DNA from: Nemertoderma westbladi
Taxonomy: Eukaryota; Animalia; Xenacoelomorpha
Assembly (NCBI GenBank): GCA_032718475.1
Contig: JAUCBJ010001962.1
Span: 1-39,572 of the forward strand
Length of the DNA stretch: 39,572 nt
Reading direction: 5' to 3'
How positions within the stretch are numbered: the stretch's first letter is position 1; every line of letters begins with the position of its first letter. Of the stretch, positions 8,320 to 34,080 are shown piece after piece. The notes under the pieces were generated by a model. It worked only from the letters and a program-made list of their open reading frames with translations. It made no database searches and was not told where the DNA came from. A program made the translations under genes and the position numbers.

Positions 8320-9509
8320 TGTTCGCGCTTTCAGACCTTTAGCAGTTTAACCTGCCAAATTGGGATGTCTTCTAGATAATAGATCGTCTTTAGCCTATGA
8401 CAAGTATTTGATACACTACATTAGCCGAAGCCAGTCTATGCGCGATCATTCACCCGCTGGATATACCCGGGAGACTGGATTCGGGAGCCTAACCGTATTG
8501 CGGGGTAGGCCTACTGTATTATTCGACTGATCGTAATATATAATCTCTGACAAATATTATTCACTTTCGGGAAATATTAACAGTTCCTTTAGGACGTGGC
8601 GCTCTAAATATATAAACAGAGTTATGACTAAAACCAGACACAACGGGATGGCTATAGATTCACATATATGGCGCATTCTTTAGGAGATGCTTCGTTATCA
8701 ATCACGATCATACACAATACTGCACAATGCTGCACACCAATCTGCCGACCTTCACTAATTTTAGTCACATATAAGGAGAACAACAGACAATACGTGTAGG
8801 GCCTATAAAATAGCATTAGATTCACTTCAAACCACTTAATGTAAGTCGCAATTGTTATATGTAACCGGTCTCTCTAACCTTTAGTATATCAAGAAGATTG
8901 GGGTGTCTGATTATTTATCAGTATTCCAAATATAATATTCCATCAACAAATATAATGAATAACCGACAGTAAAAGCAGCAAATTGTTAAGGTATAAATTG
9001 ATATGATCGCTTTGTTAAGTATGTCAGTATGGTATGATTTGTTAAGTTAAGTGAGTTATGTTAAGATAACGGATATACGTTCTATAATTAAGCCTACTAA
9101 TGTTGAGCTAAAGACTGAAACACGGAGGTTCCACGCCGGTGTTGTAGGCTGTGGACAAATCACATACTGACTCAACTCCACGAGTTTCTATATACAATCT
9201 CTAACACAGAGGCAAAAAACGCTCTGATTGGTCGACCGAACAAAGAAGGAACAGAGAACAAAGAAAAGGTCCACGTATACAGCATCAGCTGTTAGCCGTC
9301 GTCATGGTAGCTACACTGTTTACAGAGGATTTGGCGCATTGCGTCATAAAATTGCTAATCATGTCCGCTAAAGTACACATACAGAAGAAATAGCTTTTAT
9401 GTCCTCTAAAACAACAGTACAGTAAGGACACGGCCTTTTATGCCTGTTAAACCAACTACAGAGTACTTTACGGGGAAAATAACCGGCTAATTACTCAAAA
9501 GCCTTTACA
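8320..9509 (-). repeat. 3' LTR of element B (1190 bp)
   Basis: Direct repeat of 20162-21355; about 13 substitutions and one 4-bp indel by eye. Confidence 0.97.
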
Positions 9510-9518
9510 CCGCTCCCA
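9510..9518 (-). promoter_or_regulatory. Polypurine tract of element B (TGGGAGCGG)
   Basis: Purine-rich run immediately before the 3' LTR TGT on the minus strand. Confidence 0.7.
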
Positions 9519-9587
9519 GAAAATGGGATTTAAGTCTATAAAATATAACAAATCACAGTTTCTAAAATATAAAAATACTCTAAACAG

Positions 9588-12500
9588 TTAGTCTTTCTTA
9601 CGCGGACGGCGTTTACGCAGTTTTTTGAGGCTAGCAAGAGTCCTCTTCTCTTTGGGGCGAGCCACCTTACTAGGAGGGCTGTAACTCCTGGGTGAAGGGT
9701 GCAATACAATTGCATCAGAAGGTTTAGGATTACGATCGGTGTATCCTCCGGTCGAGGTACCTGGTTGATCGATATCAACTTCAGTGGAGCGAGGTCTAAC
9801 GGCCTTTAGGGCGCGTCTTAGGACAGCAGCTCCTACGGGTCCTTGACGGGTCGTCTGGACAATGGCGGTAGGCGGACCGTGAGTGGTGAGAAACTTCCTT
9901 GGTTTAATGGTTCTTTCCAGCTCGCGTTCTCGGGCTCGATATTCGTAGGGCCGTCGAGATACTTCCTGTAACTCAGGGTGCGAGTTGATAAATAAATCGC
10001 CATACTCAGGGTCTTGACGGATGTAATTGATCAAATGGTATGAAGTAATATCCTTAGGATTGACGTTCCTAAGATATTTTCGAACAAATTTGGTGGAAAT
10101 ACACTCACCAACACGCTTCATTAGTTCGTAACTCGGTGTGCGTGTTTTTTGTTCCACAGACGCGAATAAATAAGGATGGAACGCGTAAACTCCCTCGTAA
10201 GAGCGTCCAGGGTAGTAGTGATGGCGGGCCTCACAATGTAAATCCGCGTTCACTTCCCAAGCTCGGATGTAGCGCAGGGTAATCATCTCATCTACGCTTT
10301 CTAAATCGCAGTTAAAGGGGCAATTATAACTGGCATGTCCTTTAAGTTGACAGTGGTGACATTGGGTCATAAATTGGGGGCAGACTGCAAAAATATGCGA
10401 GTTATTAAGTCTGCAATACGCACAATAGATCTCCATCATCGGCTGTTCGTGGAAATAGGAGCAGGGTACATCTGAGTCCATAGGGGTGAAATGGTCTCTC
10501 AATGCGCATAATCGACAACGTTTTCGAGAAACATAGTTGGCGTGTCGATAATCGTATGCGGTGAGACATTGTGGACCTTGATACCACTCCAAGACGTAAT
10601 CGTTATCGCTGCTCCGGGGCGCTGTAGGCTGGATCGCTTCAGACTCTAAGCAGATTGGTTTGTCTTCCAATTGCATAGCTGAGGTAGGTGCGGCTGTCTC
10701 CGCAAGCGGACCCACTGTCTGAACTTCCACGACAGAATAACCCGTGGGTATTCGGGGTCTTTGTATAACAGATGAATGTAAGTTCTGTACACAAACGTCC
10801 TGAAAGAGAGCAAATCCCGCGCTGTTTAGCTTCTCCGCAGCTGAGTCTCTTAGGCTGAGTTTGGTCAGAGCGCGGTCCTTGAACTGACTATCAACGTTAC
10901 GGAACGGAGTCAGAAAGCGCCTGAAACATTCGAAGCGGATGAATTTATTGTGTTCATCTAACTTGGCGAGTTTGGTTCCAAGTATTAATGGATGGGCGCG
11001 TATGGTACGACTGCACACATCGGCTAGCCAACCGGCAAGTGCTGCGTTTTCAAAGATCGTGTATATAGCTAAGGAGGGACGAAGTGGAACACTCATAAAG
11101 CTATACACGGCGCCAGGTGCGGTCAATGGTCCATCAAAGTATAAACGAGAATAATGATCTCCATATACTTGTTGGTAATTTATAGGATTTCCAACCTTGA
11201 AATTCCATCCGTATTCTTGAAAGGCAAGATGTCCGATGGAGGTTCGTTGTACTTTAGTAATGCCGCTGGGTGTATTGGCATACATAGTGCGGAAGAAACC
11301 TCGGCCTTCTGCCCAGGGAGCAATCAGCTGAGTATCCACGAAAGGGTATGGAATGTTCTCCATATTCCGAAAGTCGTTTTGTAGATCTCCATAAACAGCT
11401 GAGCCGATTTTAAGGATTCTTTCGTTAAACAACATCTCGAGCACGGGCTGGGGTAACATCGATCCATCGATACCCATGGCCGGTTTGCGCTCGGTGTCGG
11501 CGATGTAACGCTGCGCGAGCTCGAATTGTCCATGTCGGAGTTTCTTTTGCGTCTCAGTAAGAATTTCAAAGGAATAATCAATCACATCAGAACACGCTCG
11601 AGTAAATATGTGGGTAGAACCAGCGAGTCCTCGTATGTGTGTCATCCGCGTAGTTCCCAGTTCTCTAACCGGAACGCTACCTTCGTTGTCGTAGGTGACA
11701 ACTCCATACATCTCGATAACGTTAAGAGTCTCATTCCACTCTTTAGTGGCGTTTTCAAGGGTCATTCCCACAGGATGCCACAAGGTAGCGCATTCGCTAG
11801 CATTAGGTAGGTCTCTATACTTTAAATATTGTGTGGTATATGTTTCCACATCTCCATATCGTTGTATTCTTTCCTCCTCGAATAACACGTCAAGATTCCA
11901 GTGTACTAAACGAGTTTTGATGAATCCATCAAGATTATACGGAGGTATTGTTTCTTTCTCTATTCTGGAAACATTGTATGGTTTTTGAAATGAGTTTATT
12001 TTAACTAACTGATCCAGATGTTTATGCAGTTGTTCGAGTTCGACAAGATTGAGAGGATTTATGAGTGGTAGAAACCTCAGACTATGTGTAGGATCTTCCG
12101 GTTTTATCATGTAATATTGTGTTAGGTTGACGTAATAAGGGTGATCTTTGATCCCATAAAACGAGTCCAGTAAAGGTCTAGCGCGTATGTTTACATCGTG
12201 TACCATGCGACGGACAAGATCCGCTCTATTTTCCGGAGGTTCAACGAGTATACCATCGACACGAGCGGCTTCGATGGGTGGACGTTGCAACATGGGAGCG
12301 TCAGCGATAAGATCTCTAGATCTTAGGTTGATATCAACCGGTTGGGGTTGTATCGTCGCAAAGAGTTTGTCTCCGAAATGGGGAACCATCGAGGGATGAA
12401 GGATGGTTTTAGAGTAGAGATCCGTCATAAGGATTTGAGCTTCGGGTTGAGCTAAAGCTGCTTCTTCTCTCTCATCTAGTTCTATATGTCTCTCCTCGAG

Positions 12501-13535
12501 CTGATTTTCCTCTGCTTGTTGTTGTAGACGCTCATCTAGGAACTCTTGTAAAGAGTAGGTTCGTCCACGTTCGATGTCCTCCTCGAGATTTTGTATTTCT
12601 CTATCGAACTGGGGTAAAGCTAATTCCTTCACCGCTTGGACTTGTTGTTGCAATTTACGTTTCTCCAAACAATCGTAAGTTCCTTTTCCGATTTTCTGCC
12701 GAATAGCGTCTAACGCGTTTCGTACGACGCTCTCTTCGACTTCCGTAACGGGTTGTATCGAGGTGAAGCCGGGACGGTTGTGTGGGTTAAACGGCGATAT
12801 TAGATGACCGCATCCCAATCCAGCTAGGTAGGGTTGGCGAATATCTAGCGAGCCTACTACCGGAGTACCACCAATCAACTGTTTGGGTAACACTAGATCT
12901 TTGAACAGTGAGTACAGTTCGGGAGGATCCGTGATACTATTAGGATCAAGAGTCTGAGGTCTAACTGAGGAATGAGGAGGTCTGACCGAGTATTCCGGAA
13001 CTCTGATTATTGGTTTGTTCAAGGATCGTTTGAGTCGAGCAACCGTAGGGGATACGTCGAACAGGTTTCGCTCGAAACTCCCATAAGTATATCGTGTAAA
13101 ACTGTGTTTAGCGCAACGTCTCCGCGGATGTTTATGTCTTTCCGTTTGCTGATTGGGTCTAGGGCACTCGTCGCAGTAATACCAAAGACGCACGTCCTGC
13201 AGGGGAAACGCGGGTGATCGTTCTCCAGTTTTACAATATTCCTCCATCTGTTCGAAGCTATCTGGGACGACAGGTAGCGGTCGATCGGCGGTGAGATACA
13301 TCATAGTGAAATAGAGTCGTTTGAGTTCTATCATAGGGTCATGATGTATACCTTGGGGATATCGAGTTTCGAGATTTTGTTGACTGGCAATATTGAGGTA
13401 TGTCTCTCTCAGGAATTCCAGATAATCATTGAAGTCGCTGCGTTTATCCGGCTCTTCAACGTCTTCCCTTTCGAGTTTGTTTCGAATAGAGTTCTCGTGT
13501 TCGCTATGAACGCACAAATTCAACACAACTGCCAT
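9588..13535 (-). CDS. Accessory ORF of element B, 1315 aa: DEDD(y)-type 3'-5' exonuclease plus three CCHC zinc knuckles
   Basis: Uninterrupted ORF. ExoI VVTYDNEG, ExoII region LPQPVLEMLFNERILKIGSAVYGD..FVDTQ, ExoIII-like PLRPSLAIYTIFE. Knuckles CRLC..H..C, CAYCRLNNSHIFAVC and CHHCQLKGHASYNC; basic C-terminus. Confidence 0.85.
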   Translation of the reverse strand: MAVVLNLCVHSEHENSIRNKLEREDVEEPDKRSDFNDYLEFLRETYLNIASQQNLETRYPQGIHHDPMIELKRLYFTMMYLTADRPLPVVPDSFEQMEEYCKTGERSPAFPLQDVRLWYYCDECPRPNQQTERHKHPRRRCAKHSFTRYTYGSFERNLFDVSPTVARLKRSLNKPIIRVPEYSVRPPHSSVRPQTLDPNSITDPPELYSLFKDLVLPKQLIGGTPVVGSLDIRQPYLAGLGCGHLISPFNPHNRPGFTSIQPVTEVEESVVRNALDAIRQKIGKGTYDCLEKRKLQQQVQAVKELALPQFDREIQNLEEDIERGRTYSLQEFLDERLQQQAEENQLEERHIELDEREEAALAQPEAQILMTDLYSKTILHPSMVPHFGDKLFATIQPQPVDINLRSRDLIADAPMLQRPPIEAARVDGILVEPPENRADLVRRMVHDVNIRARPLLDSFYGIKDHPYYVNLTQYYMIKPEDPTHSLRFLPLINPLNLVELEQLHKHLDQLVKINSFQKPYNVSRIEKETIPPYNLDGFIKTRLVHWNLDVLFEEERIQRYGDVETYTTQYLKYRDLPNASECATLWHPVGMTLENATKEWNETLNVIEMYGVVTYDNEGSVPVRELGTTRMTHIRGLAGSTHIFTRACSDVIDYSFEILTETQKKLRHGQFELAQRYIADTERKPAMGIDGSMLPQPVLEMLFNERILKIGSAVYGDLQNDFRNMENIPYPFVDTQLIAPWAEGRGFFRTMYANTPSGITKVQRTSIGHLAFQEYGWNFKVGNPINYQQVYGDHYSRLYFDGPLTAPGAVYSFMSVPLRPSLAIYTIFENAALAGWLADVCSRTIRAHPLILGTKLAKLDEHNKFIRFECFRRFLTPFRNVDSQFKDRALTKLSLRDSAAEKLNSAGFALFQDVCVQNLHSSVIQRPRIPTGYSVVEVQTVGPLAETAAPTSAMQLEDKPICLESEAIQPTAPRSSDNDYVLEWYQGPQCLTAYDYRHANYVSRKRCRLCALRDHFTPMDSDVPCSYFHEQPMMEIYCAYCRLNNSHIFAVCPQFMTQCHHCQLKGHASYNCPFNCDLESVDEMITLRYIRAWEVNADLHCEARHHYYPGRSYEGVYAFHPYLFASVEQKTRTPSYELMKRVGECISTKFVRKYLRNVNPKDITSYHLINYIRQDPEYGDLFINSHPELQEVSRRPYEYRARERELERTIKPRKFLTTHGPPTAIVQTTRQGPVGAAVLRRALKAVRPRSTEVDIDQPGTSTGGYTDRNPKPSDAIVLHPSPRSYSPPSKVARPKEKRTLASLKKLRKRRPRKKD

Positions 13536-14033
13536 AAACTGTACACATTCGGGCCATTTGTCCGTTAGTCAGTACCTTCCAGAATGTCACTTTATTTATT
13601 ATGTATCCTTGGATACTAGCAGTGCGCTATTTATTCCCTATGCTATTCAATGGGGTAAGCCTTCTATTGTTCTTTTAACTCACTTCTAATTCTAGCGTGG
13701 TTGTTGCCATGGTGACATTATGGAAAGCTAGCGGTAGAATTAGGGTAATTCTCATGCATACAGATCTGGGATGCTATTTAATAGTAATTCTTTAATTGTC
13801 AATATCCTCTCTATATATGATTTTATGAATTTTATCGGCTATTGACTATATATTGGAGATTCTCGCACACTAATACACTTAATAGAGTGAATCTCCGCTC
13901 CCATGATCTATTAATTAATGGAATTTTGGGAATGTTATAAATTGTATAAAATGACAATTTATTAAATTCATTGAAATATATGAATTTAAATTTATTCCCG
14001 TAAATTTTATTATTTAATGTTAAATAGACACAA

Positions 14034-14845: not shown

Positions 14846-15195
14846 TTAAGTTGGGGAGTCCCTAGATGTTTGTTGGATTAGGGAGGTGGTCGTAGGAAGA
14901 GTATCTTGCCTCCCATAGTTTCCGGAGAGTTCTCTGTCTCTTTCCAGTAAACATAAGCGACCAACTGGGCGATTGAGCTGCTGTGTCTCGAAGACAATTC
15001 CCGGTTTCTTGAAGTTACGTCGCATGACGACGAGTTCTACCGATCGCACCAAACCATCATCCGAGATGTGAGTCTCGATGATACGACCTGTCTGCCACCG
15101 CTTACGTGGAAGATCTACATCCACAATAAGAACCATGTCTCCAGCGCTGACGTTTTCTTGCTGCGCAAACCACTTAGTTCGAAGTTGTAGCGTGA
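14846..15195 (-). pseudogene. pol: BEL/Pao pol C-terminal remnant (DUF5641-like integrase tail)
   Basis: TLQLRTKW..GDMVLIVD..PRKRWQTGRIIETHISDDGLVRSVEL..RPVGRLCLLE. Confidence 0.9.
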
Positions 15196-16889
15196 ACTCT
15201 GATATTCATGAGACTTACCTAACCAATCTAATTGTCTACAGATCTCTTGAATCTCATCGGAAAACTCTATTATCCCGCTGCTAATGAACTTTCGGGGCGC
15301 TACTAATTTCGCATACAAATATTTAGCTATATTATTCCTATTACCATACCTGATGTTTAGTGTATCCCAAACTTGTCTTAATCCGTCTGGATGTCCAATA
15401 AACTTTAACGCCATTAACTTGGGAGATCCTTCCAAGCACTCGATGAGGAATCTAAGTTTCTCTCCATTAGATAGTACAGAGTTCTGTATGTTATCTTTAT
15501 AATATTCATTAAAAGGTAACCATTTCATCTCATCTCCATTGAACTTGACTATCTCTCCCACCTTTACCGCTTGACGTGCTTCGGTTCTAGCCATTTGACG
15601 CGTAAAACTTTCTTGGGCCATCGTGTTATTCAATATCGAGTTATCGGTATATAAATTTCTCGGATTATGATCAGGTCTATAGGGAATATCATTATCAACA
15701 GGTCTATAATTACCCTTAATAGGGTTCACTATAGGAGTTTCTACTTCGCTAGCAGTATATATGCGTGTAGGCTCCACACATTGCGCATGAGATACTTCAG
15801 ACCTAACAGGTTGACACATTGTTACAGGGGGTGGTGGTATACCTCGTTGTGTATTTACTAATTTATATCGCTCTAAAGCGATACTTTGCTGCACTTCTTG
15901 CAACTCTAACCTACTTTCCCTTACTGTGCCCTTGAATTGCTGAACAGTCTCCTGCATCTGCCCGAGCAGGAGATCCATCCCCCGTCGTCTCTCATCCACC
16001 CACTCGACCGCCGAAGCGGGAGCCGCCAACGTTGTAGCGGGCCGACGAGGGACAACGGGCAACAAATCATTAATATTTCGCTCGGAGTCCAGGACATGAG
16101 CATTTTCAAGGGTGGTTCTGTGTGGCACAGATAGCTTAGTGCTGTGCAGAGGGAATTTAGAGGTAGGTTCAGGGAGTACAGGTGTCTCTATCACCGAAGG
16201 AGTGGCTTCGGGAACAGGCCTAATTATTTCAGGCTCATCTACTATAGTAGGGAGTCTTTCTATTTCAATTATTTGGTCTGTGGGTTCTGTACTACCTAAG
16301 TTTGTGTTATTTAGTTGCTTTCTAACAGCTGGGGGCAAATCCGGCAATTTCTGGCGGTGGGATATTCTTCTACGTCTGCTTAGGCGAGATCGATTTCCTC
16401 CGCCTTCAGGATCGGTGGTATCGCCTTCCTCAGATATGTATTATATCCCTGTCTTTTGGGAGTTGATCGACTCATCATCTGCATATTACTAGCTGTTAAC
16501 TGTTTATTAAAGTTGTCTTGCTTCTCTTGGAGATTTTCCAACTCTAGTTGGGCGATCTCTTCAGCCGCTCTCCGTTCTGCTTCTGCCACCGCTATCTTTC
16601 TTTCCGCTTCTGCCGCTGCTGCCGCTTTTGCCTCCGCTGCTGCCGCTTTTGCCTCTGCCGCTGCTTCTGCCGCTGCCGCTTTTGCCTCTGCCGCTGCTTC
16701 TGCCGCCTTTCTTTCTGCTTCTGCTTCTGCTGCTGCCGCTGCTGCTATCTTTCTGTCTTCTATACGTTTTTTCTTTACTTGTTCTTCTAAGTTGAGTTGT
16801 TCATCAAATTTAGCTTGGTTCGCAGCTCTCATATCCACATCAATGGCGTCCAACACGCTGGGTTCCTTCACTATTAGGGCTAAGTCCAT
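15196..16889 (-). pseudogene. gag: gag of element B (Ala/Glu coiled coil, DUF1759-like capsid), frameshifted and C-terminally deleted
   Basis: IVKFNGDEMKWLPF..LSNGEKLRFLIECLEGSPK..WDTLNIRYGN; frame change near 16445; zinc knuckles absent. Confidence 0.85.
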
Positions 16890-17910
16890 CTAGCCTTCTC
16901 CTCAACTCTTCATCACCTAAAAAACGTTGATAGTCTGACAGATAGATGTCAATGGCATCCCTCTTATGCGGTTTCTCTGCCGTCGCTTCACTTTCCACTT
17001 GTGAAAAAGTAGCATCTGTTGATTCTCCATGGGTTGAGCGCTCATCTAGCTGAGCTTTCCACTGAGCTGTTCCTTGAACCTGGAGACTCACCCGTTGAAA
17101 CCAAGTCTTTACGGCAACTTGCAACGACGTGTCTTGTCTTCTTTTAGAAGCCTCCTCAAAGGCCGATAAGATTAGCCTGATTCGTAGAATTCTTTCTCTA
17201 ACTTGATAAAGCAGCTGTCCCTGCTCTTGAGGTCCTTGGGGTTGTTGAAACAGTTGTTCTTTTAATCGCTCCATGGAGCTGAAGAATCCCTGTGCGTATC
17301 CTACTGCGGACCTCTTCCACACAGCTGGATCGATGGTTTCTTTGGTTACTCCCATCCTGTGTATGTCTTCCCACGCAGCTTCTGATAAATCAAACGGGAG
17401 TCCGGGTCCGGGGAAGTTCCATTGCGACTCGACAATAGACTTCAGTTCTTCCCTTGTGTATCCCGCATAACTATCTTTAGTCGATCGCTTATTTCTCGCC
17501 CAATTGATCTGGTGTTCTTCCACTGCAATCAATAACCTAGTGAGTACGGCTGCAGGAAGGATAAGAAGGGGATCCGAATAAACCGCATCCGTCCTCTTTG
17601 CTCCACGCTCGGGTGTCAGCTCTATAGTATCCTCACTACTGGAGCTGTCGGGCCGTTGAGAAATAAGTTCTTGGCTCGCGGGTTGTTGCTGTTCCGCTGC
17701 TTCTTGGTCCCGCTTGACCTGAGCTCGAGTGCCTATGATAGACCTACGATGTTGGACTAGCCTAGGGTCTGATATTACTATGGGAGGGATGATCTTTCTT
17801 ACAGTAGGAGGTGAGTTGAACTTCGGTCCTACTCGTTCCACACTCCTGTCTGGGTCACATATGGTTGTATCTAGAAGACTGTCTGACAGGTTTTGCTTTG
17901 TGTCAGACAT
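16840..17910 (-). CDS. 356-aa upstream ORF or Gag N-terminal extension of element B, function unknown
   Basis: Open frame from ATG 17910, first ORF after the leader, overlapping the next ORF by 50 nt; no motif recognised. Confidence 0.55.
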   Translation of the reverse strand: MSDTKQNLSDSLLDTTICDPDRSVERVGPKFNSPPTVRKIIPPIVISDPRLVQHRRSIIGTRAQVKRDQEAAEQQQPASQELISQRPDSSSSEDTIELTPERGAKRTDAVYSDPLLILPAAVLTRLLIAVEEHQINWARNKRSTKDSYAGYTREELKSIVESQWNFPGPGLPFDLSEAAWEDIHRMGVTKETIDPAVWKRSAVGYAQGFFSSMERLKEQLFQQPQGPQEQGQLLYQVRERILRIRLILSAFEEASKRRQDTSLQVAVKTWFQRVSLQVQGTAQWKAQLDERSTHGESTDATFSQVESEATAEKPHKRDAIDIYLSDYQRFLGDEELRRRLDGLSPNSEGTQRVGRH

Positions 17911-19243
17911 GTTGGTTTGTACAGTTGAATGCCTACTGCTATATTACAGTTTAAGCAAGCCTAGTAATTCAGTATCACTGTTAGCCTAGTAATTAATTAC
18001 CGATACTGCTACTCAGTGTAGCATGATATATATATAATATATTAGAATACCGGTATGCTTATAGTATATATATATAAGTATTGTCACAGACTAGATTTGT
18101 CACAGAATACCGGTATGTAATTCCAGCACAAGTATATATAAATATATAATAGGCCTATCGTGAATACCGGTATAGATCTTACCACTTATAGTATATATAA
18201 GTATAATTATTAACTAGAATTAATTACAGAATACCGGTATAATTTCAGCCTAAATTTATAGAAATAAATATAATAAGCCTATGGTAAATACCGGTATGTC
18301 AATTATTTTAAATAATTGAATTTCTGAATTAGGGGTTACTTGGTTACTTTAATTTACTTTATTACCGTTATTTGAGCAGTAGTCCAACTGATATTGAGAC
18401 CTAGTTGTTGTATGGCAGGCCTACTATTTATAAATCGGTTTGAGTTGATTTATAATATATATACCCGTTATAATGGGTTTTTGTCAATATTTGAAATAAA
18501 TGTTATTATTTCTGGGGGGAGTCACTACACAGAAGCTGTGCGCTCTCAGTGAAGTGTTACTTGTTGGACACTAAAACAAATAATTCTAATTTACCTAAGT
18601 TACTTAATACTACAAATTACGTACAATTCGGGTGAAATTACAATCTCTAAATAAACACAAAAATTACAAGTACGAATTTTTAGGGTAATTTTACAAGAAG
18701 TCTACTAACCAGCCTAACAAAGGGTTAGAATATCTGGTTATTACAACGGACAGGTTACTACGGTATTTGAAAATAATAAGTAGTAGTAAATATACTGCGT
18801 TGTCCAGATAGAAAAATACCACCGTCTGACGACTTATAGCCGTATCGCTATAAGTACTACGTTATGTATCACGGAGTGTTCCTACCTAGAAGTTAATTAC
18901 CGCGGTCTACCAGAACCAACGTGCCTATTAACCACTTTACAACACAAATATACTGCCTACACACTAATCACCTTCGGAAAGCACTGTACACTAAACCCTA
19001 AATTAGGTACAAGTACTTATACAACAAATAACTAGCAGTTAGAAATACTTGAACAGCTAAAAGAACCACGGTATCTGCCGGAGTGACCAAAGCATAAAAT
19101 CTCCAGTCTTTACCTACGCCAAGCAGCCCTGATGTAGTACCGGGGTTAGTTTAACTGTAACGGTATATATAACAAGCACAATTACTGTAGGAATAAACTT
19201 GGGGAATGAATGTTGCAAATAATCGCATAAACTCTGAATAATA

Positions 19244-19810: not shown

Positions 19811-20149
19811 GTCTGTACAATCTGAGCAGGCTTACACGCCTTCTGCTCAATGCTGGCCTACAAATAAATAAAACTGACAGAAATAAGTAAGCTCCAAAAG
19901 AAACAAGGGGTGTACAGTCCCTAATCTCTTAAACAGCCTACCGGTATACAATTTCACAATCGAATAATACTGCTGTACCTGTACTGCTGTAGGTACCGGT
20001 CCGGGTGGTTAGGTAGTCAGGCCTACTAGGTACCGGTTAACCGGTACTTCAGCTTTATTGCCTACTGCAATACAGAAGCGTATATCCGTTATTGTTCTTA
20101 CCAGAACAATATTAAACTGTATTTATTGCCTACACCGCAATCCGAACTT

Positions 20150-20161
20150 TATATCCGTTAT
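20150..20161 (-). promoter_or_regulatory. PBS position of B (ATAACGGATATA), non-tRNA, complementary to its own LTR
   Basis: Abuts the 5' LTR end; reverse complement of LTR segment 20912-20923; no TGG start. Confidence 0.75.
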
Positions 20162-21355
20162 TGTTCGCGCTTTCAGACCTTTAGCAGTTTAACCTGCCAA
20201 ATTGGGATGTCTTCTAGATAATAGATCGTCTTTAGCCTATGACAAGTATTTGATACACTACATTAGCCGAAGCCAGTCTATGCGCGATCATTCACCCACT
20301 GGATATACCTGGGAGACTGGATTCGGGAGCCTAACTGTATTGCGGGGTAGGCCTACTGTATTATTCGACTGATCGTAATATATAATCTCTGACAAATATT
20401 ATTCACTTTCGGGAAATATTAACAGTTCCTTTAGGACGTGGCGCTCTAAATATATAAACAGAGTTATGACTTAAACCAGACACAACGGGATGGCTATAGA
20501 TTCACTCACGTATATGGCGCATTCTTTAGGAGATGCTTCGTTATCAATCACGATCATACACAATACTGCACAATGCTGCACACCAATCTGCCGACCTTCA
20601 CTAATTTTAGTCACATATAAGGAGAACAACAGACAATACATGTAGGGCCTATAAAATAGCATTAGATTCACTTCAAACCACTTAATGTAAGTCGCAATTG
20701 TTATATGTAACCGGTCTCTCTAACCTTTAGTATATCAAGAAGATTGGGGTGTCTGATTATTTATCAGTATTCCAAATATAATATTCCATCAACAAATATA
20801 ATGAATAACCGACAGTAAAAGCAGCAAATTGTTAAGGTATAAATTGATATGATCGCTTTGTTAAGTATGTCAGTATGGTATGATTAGTTAAGTTCAGTGA
20901 GTTATGTTAAGATAACGGATATACGTTCTATAATTAAGCCTACTAATGTTGAGCTAAAGACTGAAACACGGAGGTTCCATGCTGGTGTTGTAGGCTGCGG
21001 ACAAATCACATACTGACTCAACTCCACGAGTTTCTATATACAATCTCTAACACAGAGGCAAAAAACGCTCTGATTGGTTGACCGAACAAAGAAGGAACAG
21101 AGAACAAAGAAAAGGTCCACGTATACAGCATCAGCTGTTAGCCGTCGTCATGGTAGCTACACTGTTTACAGAGGATTTGGCGCATTGCGTCATAAAATTG
21201 CTAATCATGTCCGCTAAAGTACACATACAGAAGAAATAGCTTTTATGTCCTCTAAAACAACAGTACAGTAAGGACACGGCCTTTTATGCCTGTTAAACCA
21301 ACTACAGAGTACTTTACGGGGAAAATAACCGGCTAATTACGCAAAAGCCTTTACA
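20162..21355 (-). repeat. 5' LTR of element B (1194 bp)
   Basis: Direct repeat of 8320-9509. Minus-strand TATATAGA (~21040) lies ~26 nt upstream of a TCAGTA initiator-like motif (~21014). Confidence 0.97.
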
Positions 21356-22556: not shown

Positions 22557-22814
22557 AGGGGTTACTAGATAAATATTGGTATTACCATATTTATCAATCT
22601 TATACCTCCGTATATAATCCTATATTACCCCGACTACATACTCTATATATAATGTTACAATAATTGGACTTACCGTGGAGTATGTTGCCGTCAGGTATTA
22701 AATAACCCCAACCGTAATGTATTCATTCAATACTTGCCGTAGGCAGCACATCGCCGCCAGACAATCAAAAACACAACACTATTGCTCCATTTAACTCCAC
22801 ATCCGCAATCTGTC

Positions 22815-23763: not shown

Positions 23764-24608
23764 TTAGTTAAAAAAATTAATGGATGGCGAGTTTAAAGTT
23801 TTATTATTTATAGGAAACTGAATTCCGTCTTTAGTATAAACTAATACAACTGAACCCTTTCCTACGGCTATATAGGAGCTGTTGGGAGAGAAAGTGAATG
23901 CTGATAAACTGAAACTTTCTAACTCAGTAACTGGGAATCCGTCTTTAGTTACTTTTACTAACCCACTGTATAACTTATCGTTACTAAACCCATAAACAAG
24001 AATAATTCTAGAATCAGGTAAAAATTTCAACCTACAACCCACTGGGAATTCGCCCCCAACCGAATGATTCCCGGTTAATATATCGGTAAGAACTAATTCA
24101 CCACTCTCATCTAGAGTTGCTACTGTATTGTTAGAGTTTAATGCTACTAACTCACTAATCTTAGACCCCGGATTTGGAACTAAACTACGGAGTAATTTAC
24201 CCGGTTTCTCAAAAAACCATTTGTAAAAATTTCCAAATAAACCGGAATCATCCGAATCTTTATAACTCCACACACTGAGTTTATCAGCCGCTATACTAAC
24301 TAAATAGCTCAATGGAGCAACAAATACTAATCCCTCTACACATTCAGTAGACGTTGTTGGTAAAGTAATAAATTTATTATTATAATAAACCCGTATAATT
24401 CCATTGCGACACCCGTAAGCGAAAACCGGTTGGTTTTCTATTCCAGTTAATGAAGATATCGGACTCTCTTCGTCTTTATTTAGTTTAATATTCCCTTCCA
24501 TATCCATTATATGGAGGGAGTCCCACATATCCGCTGCTATGGTAACCGGTTCCGTATCTAGAACAGCTCGAACCCCGAGGTATCCAGTTAGTTTACCACC
24601 GCTGGTTG
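23764..24608 (-). pseudogene. WD40/beta-propeller-like ORF interrupted by the A2 LTR
   Basis: About 280 stop-free codons in AT-rich DNA with WD40-like blades (ISSL..FAYGCRNGIIRVY; VEGLVF..LVSIAADKLSVW; LSAFTFSPNSSYIAVG). The first ~29 codons of the called ORF are antisense LTR. Confidence 0.6.
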
Positions 24609-25155
24609 TGTGAGCGGATTCAATTCCGCCCACCACCCCATAAAGTTGGGAAGTGGCACCTTTCAGTAATATTGGGGATACGAGGTTAATCCCCAATTAA
24701 CCTCGTATCACACACCCAATAAACGGGGACAACAAACCCCGAAGGGCCACACAAAAGGGAGGTCAGAGGTTAAACCTCCGGGCGGGGAAAGTAACAGCAG
24801 TGGGGGGGGGGGGGGGGGGGGGGGGGGCAGGGAACGCATCCGCTAGGTTCAATGGCCATAAGTAATGTAGCTAACCAATATATATTACCGGTCAGTGCCC
24901 ATCACAATTTCAGTTATCTCAGTTATTCAGGGCAGTACGGTGACACTTTATACCATCACCGCCGTCACCAATTATTATCTATATTACCGGTCAGACACTG
25001 TGCTATCTGTTATCTGCTATCTTTGTATACTATAACCACTACTGTCAGAGTTTATCAATAATATCGGAACAACAAACTCTTTCTTTTCCATCACACGGTG
25101 CAGCCTGACGCGTAAATAAACCAAAACCCAGTCTGGATCCTCTGATCCCGTCACA
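24609..25155 (+). repeat. 5' LTR of A2
   Basis: TGTGAGCGGATTCAATTCCGC...GATCCCGTCACA; TATATATT at ~24879, TCAGTT at ~24910, AATAAA at ~25116. Confidence 0.9.
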
Positions 25156-25261
25156 GTATAAAGTCACCGACTGGCCTAGTTACTCAGTTACTCAGTACGG
25201 TCACAGTACGGCTACTGACCCTAAAGAACTGTGACTGCCAGCCACCAGAAGGATAGACAGG

Positions 25262-27330
25262 ATGAGCGAACCCCGAGACTTAGAGGGAGAGACGACACCA
25301 CCGCGGACCCCGGATGATACGAACGAAATGATCCACGTGGCCGCGACAAGACAGTATCGACCCCAACACTGTCTACCAGAGCGGGAGGAAGAGTCAACGC
25401 GCGACAGCGCACGAGGTACCGATGTCGCCGGACAGCCACAGGCCGAGGGCGACGGACGGCCCACCGGAACGGCGACGGTGCGGCCGCCGGTACGATGCCG
25501 AACCAGGAGGGGAGAAGGAAAGATCGGCGATGAGGACGTCGGAACCAGCGACCGGCTCCGACGAGCCTACAACGCAACCAAGAAACAACTCAAGGAGGCT
25601 AGGGAAGGTGTAAAGATAGATCCAGGAAAGTTAAACCAGCGGCTAGGTGAGTCGAACAAACACTTTAAATACCTAGTTCGCTTCGGGCAGGGAGAACTAG
25701 CCAGTGAGAGAGCGAGGGGGGTCGCCACCGAACTATTTGAACTGTGGCGATCCAGGATTATGGAGCCCCAAGTTGTGTACATAGGGCCGTATTTAGTGGA
25801 TGCGAGGGGTATTAAGTTAGTGGGTTGGGCAGACCCGCACGAGGGCGAATCCGAGATTAACCCCGAGGATTCGGTCTCGTCGGTTAGCGAAAATCCCAGA
25901 AAGCGGGGGAAAGTTAGCAGGACGGAGAGGCGATGGGAGTCCGTCGCGACCGACAAGTCCGCTACATCCTCCGCAAAAGTAAGAAGGGTGTTAGAATTAG
26001 ATCTGGCGTGCCAGTTGGATATGGTGGTGCTAGACCAAAAGGAGTTAGAGAGACAGTTGGAAGAGGGGAGTGCATTGTTAGAGAAAGAGAGAGAGTTGGC
26101 GAGGGAGTGTAAATAGAGGGCCGAAAGGGTGGCGAATGAGCGTGAGGCGAGAGAAACGAGAATAGAGAAAGAGCGCGAGGAACGAGAGATGAGAGCAGAG
26201 AAAGAGCGCAAAGAACGAGAAGCGAGAGAGGCAGAATTTGCGGACCAAAGTTTACGGGAGGATAGAGAGAGAGAGAGAGCGGGGAAGCATATGCGGGATG
26301 ATATGCATGCCCGGTTAAGGGGGCTTATGCAATATCAGGCCAAACAGAAGCGCCGATTGGAACTGGCGTAGTTGGGGCTATCAGAGAGCGAGGCTGGCTC
26401 GGATAGTGTTTATGAGGAGCCAGAAGTTATGGAAACGTTTGTTAATACCCCACTTACAGGGACCGGACGACAGACCCAAGACTGGTGTAACCGTATGGGC
26501 GGGGGTTGTGGGGGGGGGGGGGGGTATTAATAATACGTTAGAGAATGTTGATATTAATAGTGCCGTAGTGGATAACCCTAATCAAACTTTCATTGCAGGA
26601 AATAATATTTTGCCTGATTATTGCAATTTAAATCCGAACGATCCTAGTTTAAATGTAGAAAATAACTCAAATAATAATATAGATTCGAATTTACAAAATA
26701 ATTCAAATAATTTAAATACGCAAAATAATCTAAATAACAATCTTAATTCAAACGAACACTCTAACCAAAATATAGAAAATATTTTAAATAATAATCCGAA
26801 TTCAGAAAATAATTCTAATAATATTTAAATAATTTGGAAAATAATATTAATAATGGTGCTATTAATGTAAACGCAGCTAATGTAGGTGGTCCGACCAGCG
26901 GGGGCCTGGTGTGCAGGGGCGTGCTAGTGTGCAGGGAGTAACGGGGGTGAGAGACCCCGAGGTGGGCCTGGTAGGCCACGTAGTTAGTACGCAGGGAGTA
27001 GCGGGGTTATCATTCCGACGGGAGCCTGCCAGGCAACGCAGTGATAGAGGGAGAGGCGGGGGTGAATAGACCCAGCTGCAGTAGAGTTAGTGCATCGACT
27101 AGAGAGGGGTGTAGAAGCGAAGTAAGAGATAGTGAAGTGATAGGTGGCGAGTGGGGGGGGGGGGGGGCTACAGGAGCCCCACAACGAGAGATTAGCGGCG
27201 AGAGGGGGGGGGGGGCAGAGAGTGTCCCACAGGCGTCGGCGGATAATGCGCAGGGCAAATTAGGTGAACCGCAGCACCCGGCGATGGAGAATAGTAGGGG
27301 GATTACGAGTATCACCAGCGGCGTGCGACC
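25262..27330 (+). pseudogene. gag: Degenerate gag N-terminal region of A2
   Basis: Homologous to A1 6350-7900 (INPEDSVSSVS, coiled coil, Asn-rich tract); stops at 26114 and 26369; capsid and knuckles deleted at ~27330. Confidence 0.75.
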
Positions 27331-30300
27331 AGCTGATGCTGGTCGACAGTGGAGCAGCCTCCACATTGGTCGAGAATTGGGTGGCCGAAGAGATAGGATT
27401 GAAGACGAGGCCAAGTAGAATGGCGGTAACAACCATCTCCAGCAAAGATGAGGTCCTGGAGATGAGGACTGGACGGTGCGGGATAGCAGCGATAGCACCG
27501 GGATGCGATTATGGGGCGACAATCAACCCCATCCAGGTGATAGAGTCGATAAATATCAATGCCAGGCGACCAACCAACATCGAGGTCGAACAATATAGAT
27601 TCCTGGACAGCATCGACTTCTCAATACCAGAAGTGGACGTTAGGAAGGTATCCATTATAGTAGGAATGGACTGCCCGACGGCCCACGAGAGAATGCAGAC
27701 GGTCTTCGGTGAAGACAGACAGTGTGACCCGGTGGCGATTTTAACACCATTCGGGTGGATGCTGAGCGGCCCAATCAGAACCAAGATACCGTTTAGGATG
27801 TCGGAGACATCAGGATGCATGTTCGCGGGAACTATGCGGGAGATGGAAGATCAGGGAGCGGAGGAGCAGCTCAGGAGACTGCTTAGGCAGGATTTTGAGG
27901 GTTTTAAAGAGACTGGGGTCGGAACCTGGGCAGAAGATAAACAGGCTATGCAAAGCATAAAGGAGTCGATGAGATGCGATGAGGGGCGGTACACCATAGG
28001 GATGGTATGGAAACAACCAAAATTACCGTTGCCCGACAACAAAGGAATGGTACTCACGAGGCTTCGTAAGTTGAAGCAAATGCTAAAACGAAGCCCCGGA
28101 AAGAATGAGTACATTCATAGAACTATAAGAAAGTATGTCTAGAAAGGATGGGCCGTGGAGTTACCGGTCGACGAACCGAAAACGGACAGGACCTATTACC
28201 TACCACTTCACGTGGCTTTAGACCCGAAGAAAGGTAAACTGCGGATGGTAGTTGACGCATCGGCCAAGACTAATGGCAAATGCCTAAACAATTATCTGCT
28301 AGAGGGTCCCAACATCTACAACTCAGGGATCGAGGTCCTACTCAGATTCAGAAACGGGAGGCATGCCTTCACTTGTGACATGGAAGGCATGTTCAACCAA
28401 GTCCGTGTGACGGAGGAGGATAGCGACAGCCAGCGCTTCCTATGGTACAACGTCGACGAGGAACAGTCGACAATACTGATGTACAAGATGGTGGTGCAGA
28501 ATATGGGGCCCAAGTCGTCCTCATTTACGATGACTGTGGCTGTAAGGGACACAGTAGAGGGGAAAGAGGAGAGTTACAGTGCCAAAGCCGTCGATATGAT
28601 TCGACGCGGCTTCTATGTAGATGACGGGATGGAGTCTGGAAACACGGTTAAAGAACTACTGAATACAGGGCGCGAGGTTCGCGACATCCTGAAAGGATCC
28701 GGGTTTAACCTGACCAAGTTCCAATCCAGCTCGGAAGAGTTTATGAGAGCCATAGAGGACAGGAGGCCAGAGTCGACCATGGATAATCCCACGACAGCCA
28801 AGGGACAGGACATGGCAAACAATAGGGTAGAGTCCCAGCAGAAGGCATTAGGGATCGTGTGGAACTGAGAGACAGACGAGTTCAAGTACCAGCTGAGCCA
28901 GGAGGGCGCGGACATCCACACAAAGGGGGGCTATGTATCGTATGTAGCAAGGATATACGATCCCCTAGGCCTAGCATCCCCACTATTAGTCATGGGAAAG
29001 CAGATACTTAAGAAAGTATACAAGCTAAAGGACGAATGGGATACAGAGGTCCCGGAAGAGATCAGCAAGCAGTGGAGCAAGTGGACAGAGAGTTTAGAAC
29101 AGATGGGGACATACAGCATGCCACGCGTGTATTTCCCGGATGGGGACATAACGAATCTGGATCTGCATATGTTCTCCGATGCGTCATTGGAAGCATATGG
29201 AGCGGCACTCTACCTAGTACAACGAGAGGGGGCCCATAAGCCCAGACTTGCATTCAGCAAAGCAAAGTCGACGCCCCCAGATTCAGCATTGGTCCCAAAA
29301 CTCAAGTTGACAGCTGCGAGATTAGGAGTAAGAGCCACAGCATACTTGATGGACACTATTCCCAACATAGTGGAAACATACTACTGGACGGACTCCATGG
29401 TAGTGCTTGGTTGGCTACACAATGAGAAGATGAGATACCCTATATTCGTCGCAACACTTTGTGGTACGCCACACTTTCTTGAAGAAGGAAGTATTGTGGC
29501 AGCACGGGCCGCAATTCCTGAACGATAGGACAGCCTGGCCACCGATGAAGAAGGTGGACCCGGGCTCAGAGGAAGTGGTATTAGAGGAAGAGGGAGGAGA
29601 CTCAGAAGGTGAAGAAATAGTCAAATGGTGAGGGAGATCAGGGACGTGCAACCAAAAATGGAAGAACTATGCGATAACCCGATGGACAAACTCCTCAGCT
29701 ATAGCTCAAGTTGGTACAAGACCAAGAAGTTAGTGGCGTAGTAGAGAGCCTTCGGGAATTTCCTCAAGGGAGTCGGTAAAGACACCAAAAATAAACCAAA
29801 CATCGATCTGGAGGGAGCGGCCAAGGCTGTCATTCGTTACGAACAGGGAAAGAACTATGGCGAGGAAGTGGAGCACGTCGGTAAACAACAGCATCTCCGT
29901 CGGGACAGCGAGCTTATCACGCTGTCGCCACAACTTAATGAAGATGGGATCTTAGTAATGAACTCTAGAGTGCTAAATAACAACAGCCTCATTTTTCCTC
30001 CAAAACCCATCATCATCCAGAATAGATCGCCGATAGTCCACCAGATCATCTGGGACTCCCACAAGTCAATATTGCACGGGGGCACCAACCGGACTCTCAC
30101 GGAGATAAGGAGGACCTTCTGGATCACACAGCTAAGGAAGAAGGTGAAGGCGGTAGTGGGGCAGTGCCAGACCTGCCAACGGACGAGGAAGGAGCGGGCC
30201 ATACAGGAGATGGCGCCATTACCGGCCTTAGAAAGGTTCAGAGACCGCAAAGGTGGGACGATCGCAGTAATATACTCCGATAATGGAACCAACTTTGTGG

Positions 30301-30986
30301 GGGCGGAGAACGAGTTGGCAGAGGCCTTGGACATCCTGGAAGGGGAGGAAGTCAGGGCAGCCATGAGGAGACGACAGGTGAAGTGGGAGAGGAGGACGCT
30401 GTATGCTCCGCATACTCTAGGATGCATCGAGAGACTCGTGGGTAGTTCCAAGCGTCTGATGACGAAGCTGATGAACACCCACATTGTGACAGAAGATGTA
30501 CTAAGGACGGTACTAGCTAAGTGCGAGGGTATCATTAATAGCAGACCGCTATACCCAGAAAATGATGACCCAGAGTCATTAGATGTGCTGACACCCAGTC
30601 ACTTTCTAATGGAGAGGTCGGCGACCATTGACATGCGGGGTGTAGACCCAGACGATATATACTCCCGACAGAGTTGGAAAGTCGCTAAGGCGATAAGCGC
30701 GGAGTACTGGAGGAGGTGGGTCGAGGAATATCTACCCACACTTCATAGGAGGAGCAAGTGGAGAAATACCACTAGGGAGTTGAAGAAGGATGATCTGTTG
30801 ATCGTCATGGACGATACCATCATCAACAACCAATGGAGATTGGCAAGAGTAGTGGACACTTACTCCGATGAGGACGGAAGAGTCCGATCGGTAGAAGTGC
30901 AGATAGGTGGAAAGATAGGAGCGAAAGATAGGAAGACCTACAGGAGGGCTGTAGGAAAATGCTGCCTGCTAAAGGGCGCACCGTAG
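27331..30986 (+). pseudogene. pol: BEL/Pao pol (aspartic protease, RT, Pao RNase H, integrase, DUF5641-like tail)
   Basis: LVDSGA; YYLPLH..KLRMVVDASAK..LNNYLLEGP; CDMEGMFNQV; FYVDDG; LHMFSDASLEAYGA; H..HGG..CQTC; YSDNGTNFVGA; WRRWVEEYLPTL..DGRVRSVEV. Several stops and frameshifts, and an in-frame deletion in the integrase core at ~30224. Confidence 0.95.
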
Positions 30987-31164
30987 AGTTTAGTCGTCCA
31001 AGTGTTGGACTGAGGGGGGTGGGATTGAGGGCGAGACGCCCTTTCCACACAAATATAAAACATAAAAAAAAATAATAAAATAATAGAGAAAGAGAGAAAG
31101 AGAAAGGAAAGTAATAGTACATAGTAGGTACGTAGTAAGTAAGTAGGCAGATAGAAGTTAGTCA

Positions 31165-31665
31165 GAGTCAGTTAGTAGTAAGAGGGTACGTAGTACCGTT
31201 AGTTAGTTGGAGAGTTAGTTAGTAGTAAGAGGGTACGTAGTACCTTTAGTTGGAGAGTTAGTTAGTAGTAAGAGGGTACGTAGTACTGTTAGTTGGAGAG
31301 TTAGTTAGTAGTAAGAGGGTACGTAGTACCAGCAGTAAGAGTTAGTGGAGTTAGTTAGTAGTAAGGGGGTACATAGTACCGGTAGTAAGAGTTAGTGGAG
31401 TTAGAGAAGTTAGTAAGAGGGTACATAGTACCGGTAGTAAGAGTTAGTAGAGAAGTTCATAAGAGGGTACATAGTACCGGCAATAAGAGTTAGTGGAGTA
31501 GAGAAGTTAGTAAGAGTGTACATAATACCGATAGTAAGAGTTAGTAGAGAAGTTAATAAGAGGGTACGTATAGTACCATTAGTAGTAAGAGTTAGTGGTA
31601 AGAGGGTATATATTATACAGTAAGAGTTAGTAAGAGTTAATAGAAATTAGTTAGAAAGTTAGTAG
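31165..31665 (+). repeat. Degenerate ~35-42-bp tandem repeat between pol and the accessory ORF of A2
   Basis: Recurring gttagtagtaagagggtac(g/a)tagtacc units, about 12 copies. Confidence 0.85.
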
Positions 31666-32092
31666 TGAGTAGCGAGAGGGGGGCACGTGGGTACAGCTAG
31701 GCAGATCGTGTAGGCCACACGAGATATACTGCTGAACTGCACAAGCCCATAGAGTAGACCAGAATATGGATTAGAATAGAAATAATCTATTAGTAAATAC
31801 TGATAGCACAGTTGTAGAATTAAAAATTAAATATTAGAAATTAGAAATTAAACAAATTATGGTAACAGTAAGAAAAATATTCCAGAACATAATTAAAGTA
31901 ACGGACAAAATTACGAAATTTAGTAAAAATTAGCACTTTTAGGGAATAAGATGGGAAAATTAGGCAATAACCTGACATTCAGCGAGAGATAGGCCATTAT
32001 CGGACCGCAGAGACTATCCAAACTTCATCACTCATCTATATTGTGCCTTGGCAAGGCCCCACCTTATAGGTGAGCGATCGAGAGAGTTCGAA

Positions 32093-34080
32093 ATGGCGGA
32101 GAAACTTGTCCAAAAGAGAAAGGTGGAGTTGGGAGGAAAGGAGATACTGGTGGATTTCACCGAGAGGCATCCGGAAGAGAAGACAAGGGGATACTACGAG
32201 CAGTTAGAGAGGGGTCACAAAGCGCGAGCGCTGTAGGACCATTTCAGGGAGGTGCACGAACAGCGGCTGGTCGGGACCTACGGGACACCGTTGCTAGATA
32301 ACGCAATCTTCAAGCATTTCCACTACGTGGTGAAGGGAGACGAGGCAAAGTTTGGGATACCGAAGTATCCAAAGGAACCACCGAGAAAGGACTGGAAGAG
32401 GTTCGTAGAGTCCGTCAGCAGGGGAGGATACATGGTCCTAGATGATGAGGGGACCGTGGAGGATGAGGAAGGTTTGAGGAGAGGGTCGGCGGGGTCGGCC
32501 AGAACCATACTCCTACATTTCGCCACGCCAAATGGGGACATTTTTCTGTTCGACCTGGGAACGTATGGGAAGAAGAACGGGCCGAAGTTGAACCGGTTGC
32601 CAAAGGCGGTGCAAGCCCTAGTAAGAGAGAAGACGACGATAAAGGTGGGATCGGCGATCCGCGATGATGCGGAGAGGATCATCAGTCCGGAGACCCACAA
32701 CCTCCTGGACATGTAGACGGTCTACATGGCTATAACAGCACCAGGCGGGTTGGGGCTAGTAGAGAACGCAGGCCATTGTGGAGCGGTGGTGATGGGCCAG
32801 CTAATGGGGCTCGTGTGTCAATTCAGAGAGGAGTATGGTTGGCGAACTCGCTGAAGTGGGGAGCGAGACCAGGGAAGCAAGAGGTCTATCAATTCCGGAG
32901 AGGAGCGATAAAGGTATATCAGAAGCGATATATCCTACAGGAGGACTGGATAATGATAGGTTTGCTAAACCTATTCATGACCGTGGTTATCGAGAGAGAA
33001 CCAATGGCATTCCTGCTATCGGGATCACCCCTGAACTACAGAAGAGCCTTCAAAGTGGCTTTCGAGGGTCTGGTAGACCACCCGGGGCTGAAGGGCGAGT
33101 CGGTATACTATATCTGCCGATATCTAGTAGATGGGGAGGTGGATACGCTATATCAGAGGTGGGAACAGCTAGAGGCGGATAGACATGAGGCGAAGCGATT
33201 GGAAGAAATCGCTAGGAGAGAAAGGAGGGAGGCAGAAGAAAGGGAGGAGGAAGCTAGCGCAGAGAGCTATGGATTCGAGGAACAGGCGGCCTTAGACGAG
33301 CTACACTGGACATCAGGGAGTTCGGGCGAGTCTCTAGGGCGAGAATTGGGGTGGACGGTGGGATCACCGAAACAGTCGACATCGGGATTGCAGACGACGC
33401 CCATACCAGCGGGCGCCAAGGGCGATTTCGCACAGAGGAGGCCAGGGGAACTGGAAGGATGGAGTCACGGGCGAGAGCCAAGGTGGGAAGGGTCACAGTG
33501 GATCCACCGGGATACCGGGATTGGAGCCACTCGCAGAGGAGGACGAGGATGACGACAAGTTCGGAGAGATGCCGCCCATCGGGAGAATCGGCCACTCGGA
33601 CACGGACTGGGTTAGCGGGAGGGTGGTGACGGCCAGCGGGGCGAGGGCCTTTTGGGATAGACCCGGCAAGTGGGCCTGGGTGCATGAGGAGATAGACGTG
33701 GACAGGGACGCTAACATCCAGAAGTTCGCTTACCAGCGACTCCATAGACCGAGGAGATCGCTTGGGATGAAAGACGACGTGGGGCGGGAGGCATTGGTAC
33801 TCGGCTGTGATTACTGCGGGAGGCAGACTCACCAGGAAAGGAGCTGCTTGTACCGATTCCAGAAAGGGACTAGCTGTCTCTACTGCCACGAGTCGAGTCA
33901 CATGATGGGGGCATGTCCACGGTTGCACATCCGGTGTTCTAAGTGCAACTTCCGGGGGCACTACGGACGCCAGTGTGACTGGATGGACGACGAGGAGAAG
34001 TTTAGGATTTTCGAGGAGTGGGCTGATGTCAGCGCCATGACCCGACAGCGGATGAAGGCCCAGGAATTCCGGAATTCCGG
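32093..34080 (+). pseudogene. Accessory ORF of A2: DEDD(y)-type 3'-5' exonuclease plus three CCHC knuckles
   Basis: MVLDDEG; LLHFATPNGDIFLFDL; LPKAVQALVREKTTIKVGSAIRDD..LLDM; RYILQE; CDYCGRQTHQERSC, CLYCHESSHMMGAC, CSKCNFRGHYGRQC. Stops at 32234 and 32714 plus frameshifts. Confidence 0.85.

Follow-up and report, generated by a model that had tools for sequence, protein, structure and literature searches.

Primer-binding sites complementary to the element's own long terminal repeat, and a predicted nuclease gene, in two BEL/Pao-type retrotransposon families of Nemertoderma westbladi

In the long terminal repeat (LTR) retrotransposon Tf1, reverse transcription is self-primed and the primer consists of the transcript's first 11 nt, released by an RNase H cut, as related in passages of PMC7175516. 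For the Belpaoviridae, the ICTV profile gives an 18-nt primer-binding site (PBS) for a host tRNA-Arg or tRNA-Gly, as well as an env-like third gene (PMC8742986). In bdelloid rotifers, the Juno and Vesta LTR elements and the Terminons carry DEDDy-type third open reading frames (ORF3s), which the relevant sections of Rodriguez et al. (2017, PMC5408684) present as exchangeable accessories, missing from basal branches and alternating with GDSL esterases. The locus considered here, a contig of Nemertoderma westbladi (GenBank assembly GCA_032718475.1, contig JAUCBJ010001962.1, positions 1 to 39,572, forward strand; the window, i.e. the whole stretch of 39,572 nt analysed), holds an element designated B together with three copies, A2, A1 and A0, of a second element family, A. 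B and the A copies are defective members of two BEL/Pao families, and the pairing of their PBS with their own LTR makes it likely that both families use RNA of their own to start reverse transcription.

Pairing of the primer-binding site with the LTR

In all four copies the PBS lacks the TGG start and is complementary to a segment within the LTR of the same element, hereafter the anti-PBS, the pairing beginning at the first base past the LTR and stopping exactly at the LTR edge in each of them (Table 1). An anchored match as long as the 12 nt of B was reached by none of 22,764 random starts, and the second PBS copy of this element, besides its perfect 14-nt complement, supports a longer pairing of 18 out of 19 positions with one bulge. 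In A2, the 18-nt duplex is predicted at -20.9 kcal/mol against -11.9 for the next best site. In A1 and A0, 9 nt match the LTR at the homologous position, the anti-PBS of the A copies sitting 210-219 nt from the LTR end; taken singly, each A copy has a chance of 87-91 in 22,764 of showing a 9-nt anchored match. For A2, A0 and B, the PBS duplex is part of the minimum free energy (MFE) fold as well as of the centroid fold, and a small hairpin is predicted just ahead of the LTR end in the three A copies.

Over the nine pairs in the three A copies, 27 of 27 cells are paired, and six of the nine pairs are altered on both sides while none is broken; none of 500 shuffles equalled this, and slid windows were 30-48% paired with zero double changes. 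The pairing site is itself less conserved (3-6 of 9 positions) than its flanks (14-17 of 20). Such covariation without a broken pair makes self-priming likely. Self-priming predicts that a PBS tracks its own LTR, since plus-strand synthesis would copy the primer into the PBS (an extension of the text to Fig. 4 in PMC7175516), and this primer-templated rewriting would explain the joint change of PBS and anti-PBS.

Alternatively, the pairing could be structural only, as a fold between U5 and the leader, or a by-product of strand transfer, while a host RNA, e.g. an internal tRNA fragment, does the priming. The tandem LTR-end/PBS units of B and the degenerate ones of A0 and A2 do indicate a rearrangement-prone region, as this reading would have it, but the first nine PBS bases differ at six positions among the three A copies, which one host primer cannot match, and the start of the pairing at the very first base beyond the LTR in four of four copies also speaks against it; this reading is considered very improbable. 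Two other primers were set aside. An element-encoded tRNA was rejected, neither ARAGORN nor Rfam having found one in the window, and a splice-junction primer is not needed, the anti-PBS being contiguous in the four LTRs and followed by no GT.

An earlier note on this DNA, made from the sequence alone, had observed that B and A2 both combine a self-complementary PBS with an exonuclease ORF, and had proposed that tRNA would be dispensed with and that the 3'-OH of the primer would be left at the LTR boundary. Both features are indeed present in both elements, independence from tRNA is supported by the anchored-match nulls and the A-family covariation, and the duplex does end at that boundary. The observation of a self-complementary PBS together with this ORF is confirmed, and it is strengthened by covariation in the three A copies and by selection on ORF3 of B.

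The third gene and the release of the primer

The intact ORF3 is that of B, and the contigs of run X1 include relatives of B that are about 87% identical to it over pieces of ORF3. Among the 40 differences listed between X1 and B (total 1,036), 22 fall in ORF3, of which 17 are at third codon positions and 16 are synonymous (p 3e-5), a pattern of purifying selection in the listed set; by this measure ORF3 is a real, selected gene. In A2, it has at least two in-frame stops. A full phmmer scan of 1.84 billion representatives returned a single match to ORF3, the 648-aa protein P0002 (E 2e-6), and three word-index protein searches with ORF3 added no new homolog; no rotifer sequence was among the matches of the ORF3 protein searches. 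B, A2 and P0002 have in common D-x-E, LP..(I/V)..L....K(I/V)GS...D, YxxxE and three Cys/His boxes. In B, the putative catalytic residues are D627, E629, D728, Y836 and E840, and the boxes lie at about residues 1017-1084.

ORF3 probably encodes a DEDDy-fold protein, an assignment drawn from several remote matches that are each weak but concordant, with no family match above cut-off: for ORF3 of B, no Pfam family passes it. In the PDB, the ORF3 profile matches TbRND, the RNase D of Trypanosoma brucei, best (7C42, E 1.6e-5), and this match spans the sequence from nuclease to fingers. When the profile is confined to the nuclease, only RNase D and EXD2 come up, at E 0.2 among 177,635 sequences, and 7C42 is not listed, so the fingers supply part of the full-profile score. 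P0002 matches Pfam DNA_pol_A_exo1 at E 0.2, the NCBIfam family rnd is matched at E 0.009 in one of five members, and ORF3 of B on its own reaches an rnd gene at E 10, with an ABC protein that is unrelated scoring E 4 beside it. Against a reference set of 10 bacterial sequences picked from 88 loci, hhalign aligned Exo I (DxE) to Exo II (D) over 89 columns with a probability of 82% (E 1.1e-5), a score that none of 100 column shuffles reached, although one shuffle, an outlier, exceeded the real score under other settings. Exo III falls in register, though weakly aligned (E 0.09, five of 100 shuffles being as high), and reads YxxxE rather than YxxxD in three of three homologs, i.e. the final Asp is replaced by Glu. 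Two AlphaFold2 models of ORF3 are unusable (pLDDT 31 and 28). The exonuclease ORF with knuckle-type domains of the earlier note is thus recovered, by remote homology, as an RNase D-like ORF3 bearing three Cys/His boxes, and its product is predicted to be an accessory nuclease trimming RNA 3' ends.

ORF3 could have a job unrelated to self-priming, the latter being real nonetheless: degradation of PIWI-interacting RNAs, small interfering RNAs or the RNA ends of the element against silencing, polishing of the ends of the complementary DNA (cDNA), or non-catalytic RNA binding. This reading overlaps the explanation preferred below, except that it leaves the source of the 3'-OH undecided, e.g. a host nuclease. 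It would accommodate an ORF3 that is open, with differences concentrated at third codon positions, in an element without most of pol, as well as the Glu of Exo III in every homolog, and sections of PMC5408684 discuss a role in silencing as well as DEDD derivatives that are inactive. However, an acidic residue is retained at all four positions, in keeping with catalysis; on balance, this reading appears improbable.

How the primer would be released depends on where the anti-PBS falls in the transcript. From TATA-like and TCAGT initiator-like motifs, the latter read against the initiator consensus, the transcription start site (TSS) is predicted upstream of the anti-PBS, by about 25-45 nt in A and by about 90 nt in B; the R boundaries are predictions as well. 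At the other end, AATAAA is not conserved: the LTRs of B, A1 and A0 have none, the A2 LTR has it at positions 110 and 507, and in B the PBS units are closely followed by two. When the PBS is left out of the fold, the bases 3' of the anti-PBS are taken up in a short hairpin in three of three A copies. The earlier placement of the anti-PBS downstream of the TSS therefore holds with respect to the TATA- and initiator-like motifs, whereas its location within R is plausible only, AATAAA not being conserved.

The preferred explanation combines self-priming, a Tf1-like RNase H cut of the primer and ORF3 as an accessory nuclease; as a whole, it is given about an even chance of being right. Transcription would start at the predicted sites, and the 5' leader would fold back across U5 to pair with the PBS. 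By analogy with Tf1, the RNase H of the element, a region seen in A2 via the Peptidase_A17 match, would then cut where the duplex ends on its 3' side, freeing a capped 5' fragment as the primer while the remaining R would be kept for strand transfer. Copying of this primer during plus-strand synthesis would rewrite the PBS, and ORF3 would have a helper role on the RNA of the element or on small RNA ends. The RNase H cut is ranked above exonuclease trimming, since no new part is needed and a long R is left.

In trimming by the exonuclease, ORF3 itself would make or finish the primer: an RNA bearing the anti-PBS, be it the 3' R copy, a short LTR transcript or a 5' fragment resulting from an imprecise cut in the loop, would anneal to the PBS, and the knuckle-bearing enzyme would trim the 3' overhang down to the duplex. 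Both families do display the self-complementary PBS and ORF3, the duplex stops right at the LTR edge in the four copies, and the anti-PBS is internal to the predicted transcript, which means that downstream RNA must be removed. Besides, TbRND, the nearest solved architecture, trims the 3' ends of guide RNAs and has CCHC fingers (from passages of PMC7797062), and processing of element-RNA 3' ends has been proposed for the rotifer ORF3s, in one section of Rodriguez et al. (PMC5408684). The hairpin over the 3' flank of the anti-PBS would stand in the way of such trimming in all A copies, although the extended A2 PBS could displace the arm concerned. Trimming the 3' R copy would also mean taking off the poly(A) and about 170 nt or more, going by the AATAAA at position 507 of the A2 LTR, and the short R left over would be partly held in the PBS duplex. 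TbRND requires a single-stranded substrate of at least 7 nt according to passages of PMC7797062, hence it cannot be taken for granted that such an enzyme trims flush. ORF3 lies apart from gag-pol and shows no obvious way into the particle, and its last acidic residue is E instead of D. Moreover, the parts of PMC5408684 at hand report DEDDy ORFs in Penelope-like Terminons too, and Vesta and Juno families with GDSL or other ORF3s, so that there is no general tie between such ORFs and a PBS; co-occurrence in the window amounts to two families in one genome, possibly from one ancestral event. Primer making by ORF3 is accordingly possible but rather unlikely, and the historical form of the same idea, namely that an old BEL/Pao lineage swapped its tRNA primer for its own LTR RNA and gained a trimmer made of RNase D plus knuckles, is doubtful to the same degree. 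The proposal of the earlier note that the exonuclease makes the primer and replaces the Tf1-style RNase H cut is not supported so far, given two families and the substrate length that TbRND needs.

Several points weigh against self-priming with an RNase H cut as drawn above. The account is built on DNA sequence. ORF3 is kept in both distant families, which would fit a core role, and the anti-PBS lies away from the predicted start of the RNA, unlike that of Tf1 with its first 11 nt. The covariation comes from three sequences only, and the structure itself was derived from those three. In A1, a local hairpin wins and neither the MFE nor the centroid fold contains the PBS duplex, while the 18-nt probe of this copy has a slightly better predicted duplex elsewhere in the LTR (-14.9 vs. 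-14.4). Folding z-scores of whole leaders are unremarkable (-0.75 to -1.71), and the search that found no tRNA or Rfam family (ARAGORN, Rfam) covered the window only.

Element structure and surroundings

Table 1. Coordinates of the B and A elements in the window.
Feature	Position	Strand	Description
B 5' LTR	20162..21355	-	1194 bp, TG...CA
B 3' LTR	8320..9509	-	target-site duplication of 5 bp, GGGAG, at 8315-8319 and 21356-21360
B PBS	20150..20161	-	adjoins LTR directly; 12-nt perfect complement of LTR anti-PBS
B second PBS copy	20079..20092	-	in tandem LTR-end/PBS unit with a period of 69 nt; perfectly complementary over 14 nt
B anti-PBS	20912..20923	-	LTR positions 433-444; same site in 3' LTR at 9066-9077
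B gag	15115..17943	-	spread over three frames; DUF1759
B integrase C-terminal remnant	14846..15205	-	DUF5641; remainder of pol deleted
B ORF3	9588..13568	-	1326 codons, open; RNase D-like domain (predicted) and three Cys/His boxes
A2 5' LTR	24609..25155	+	547 bp, TG...CA
A2 PBS	25156..25173	+	9 nt perfect (25156-25164), 18 nt with two bulges
A2 anti-PBS	24945..24953	+	in loop of predicted short hairpin when PBS absent
A2 pol	27264..30986	+	protease, reverse transcriptase (RT), RNase H, integrase in this order, BEL/Pao type; several stops and a frameshifted stretch
A2 ORF3	about 32093..34065	+	broken by two frameshifts and by stops at 32234 and 32714; ended by LINE fragment
A1 5' LTR, PBS and anti-PBS	5517..6123	+	LTR 5517-6114; PBS 6115-6123; anti-PBS 5899-5907
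A0 5' LTR, PBS and anti-PBS	360..984	-	LTR 984-369; anti-PBS 588-580; PBS 368-360; remainder outside window

Animal transposons are nested in one another in the window, B being inserted within A1. The two LTRs of B are 98.6% identical, differing by 13 substitutions and one 4-nt indel, and its BEL/Pao domains are DUF1759 and DUF5641 only. Its long 5' leader includes a 289-bp tandem duplication (19233-19792), and in its tandem LTR-end/PBS region (20055-20161, minus strand) AATAAA follows each unit, one contig of run X1 showing a further joint. In the integrase tail, A and B share 29% identity over 84 residues and are thus distant families.

All three A copies show a 5' LTR only. A2 terminates at a fragment of a long interspersed nuclear element (LINE), without polypurine tract or 3' LTR, and its pol holds Asp_protease_2, RVT_1 (weak), Peptidase_A17 (E 5e-40), Integrase_H2C2 and DUF5641. 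A1 has gag after the PBS, interrupted by B, and neither pol nor ORF3; A1 and A0, without 3' halves, are uninformative on the co-occurrence of PBS and ORF3. The starts of the three A LTRs (24609-24830, 5517-5730 and 984-750) include the same 21-nt imperfect palindrome, identical in all, and a long poly-G run stands in the predicted U3 of each. A 43-52-bp tandem array (31155-31658) lies between pol and ORF3 of A2. A search of viral_contigs with the A2 integrase found no related locus, and no contig of run X1 aligned to the A2 LTR/PBS. No segment of the exonuclease alignment is sufficiently conserved to serve in scanning for loci. The LTR-start pattern had no match in viral_contigs and five in metagenome_contigs, which were dropped as chance, being GC-rich and otherwise dissimilar to the window.

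Around these elements, a piggyBac-like element (2049-4758) has its DDE_Tnp_1_7 transposase (3248-4639) bracketed by 43-nt inverted repeats, and a 38-bp satellite occurs on both sides of the A1/B nest (4730-5520 and 22108-22164), A1 ending abruptly at it. The LINE fragment abutting the cut-off end of A2 (34029-35969, minus strand) holds an endonuclease domain and an ORF1 rich in Cys, but no RT. Farther on come a DUF4806 frame (36143-36487) and integrase fragments (H2C2, rve; 36926-37715) from a further LTR element. An AT-rich open frame of 310 codons (23764-24696, minus strand) starts within the A2 LTR and extends upstream of it; by eye it looks beta-rich or WD40-like, with no Pfam match and no significant PDB match. 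Inverted-repeat elements, possibly of the miniature inverted-repeat transposable element (MITE) type, are seen at 22360-23006 and 38711-39274.

Comparison with described systems

The function of nuclease ORF3s in LTR elements has not been assigned since 2017. An open ORF3 next to a short, defined RNA duplex provides a concrete substrate, hence the question becomes directly testable; were ORF3 to make the primer, this would be a new priming chemistry and a third route after tRNA capture and the RNase H cut of Tf1. Some of the Cer BEL/Pao elements of Caenorhabditis elegans (Cer7 group) reportedly have an exonuclease-like ORF together with an element-encoded tRNA-like primer. If so, the primer there is a tRNA mimic and not a piece of LTR, the novelty of ORF3 is lower, and its coupling to priming is more plausible.

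In the searched literature, no self-priming BEL/Pao element, no exonuclease-made LTR primer and no combination of self-priming with such an ORF3 was found, although the Cer papers, the 2007 work on Juno and Vesta, Levin 1996 and Repbase may hold prior art. By term search, neither primer nor PBS nor exonuclease occurs in the accessible text of De la Chaux and Wagner (2011, PMC3118150), neither PBS nor tRNA in that of the Sinbad paper (PMC554778), and neither PBS nor priming in that of PMC5408684. Passages of PMC3601003, PMC4600332, PMC5443660, PMC5718144 and PMC11662393 refer to self-priming as of the Tf1 type, to DEDDy ORF3s as those of rotifers, or are silent.

Like the Belpaoviridae, the elements of the window have LTRs, a gag-pol with the protease, RT, RNase H and integrase order and room for an optional third gene (PMC8742986), but B and A have neither a tRNA-type 18-nt PBS nor an env-like third gene. 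From their sequence features they are filed as BEL/Pao-lineage variants, not canonical members. While BEL/Pao replication is assumed to be tRNA-primed (PMC8742986), a covarying self-complementary PBS would extend tRNA-independent priming to this superfamily.

As in Tf1 and Tf2 of Schizosaccharomyces pombe, Tj1 and the Tf1/sushi group, the PBS is complementary to an RNA derived from the LTR of the element itself, at least as that group is described in passages of PMC7175516 and PMC4600332, and the duplex is of similar length, 11 nt in Tf1 and 9-12 nt in B and A. Unlike Tf1/sushi, which is of the chromovirus lineage of Ty3/gypsy, B and A have pol and gag domains of the BEL/Pao type; unlike Tf1 as it is portrayed in those passages, the anti-PBS is predicted 25-90 nt into the transcript and not at bases 1-11, and a nuclease-like ORF3 comes in addition. 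The rotifer Juno/Vesta clade is Ty3/gypsy-like. Its elements share with those of the window an RNase D-like DEDDy ORF downstream of pol with an altered acidic motif, which reads DEED in the rotifer ORF3s as given in sections of PMC5408684, and D-E-D-E, with three Cys/His boxes, in those of B and A2. TbRND likewise has a DEDDy domain followed by CCHC fingers, yet, from what passages of PMC7797062 say of it, this is a cellular enzyme with four fingers and a preference for U, whereas ORF3 has three boxes, long linkers and a Glu at the last catalytic position. In short, the B and A families are probably Tf1-like in priming and resemble the rotifer elements in ORF3, and they belong to neither group.

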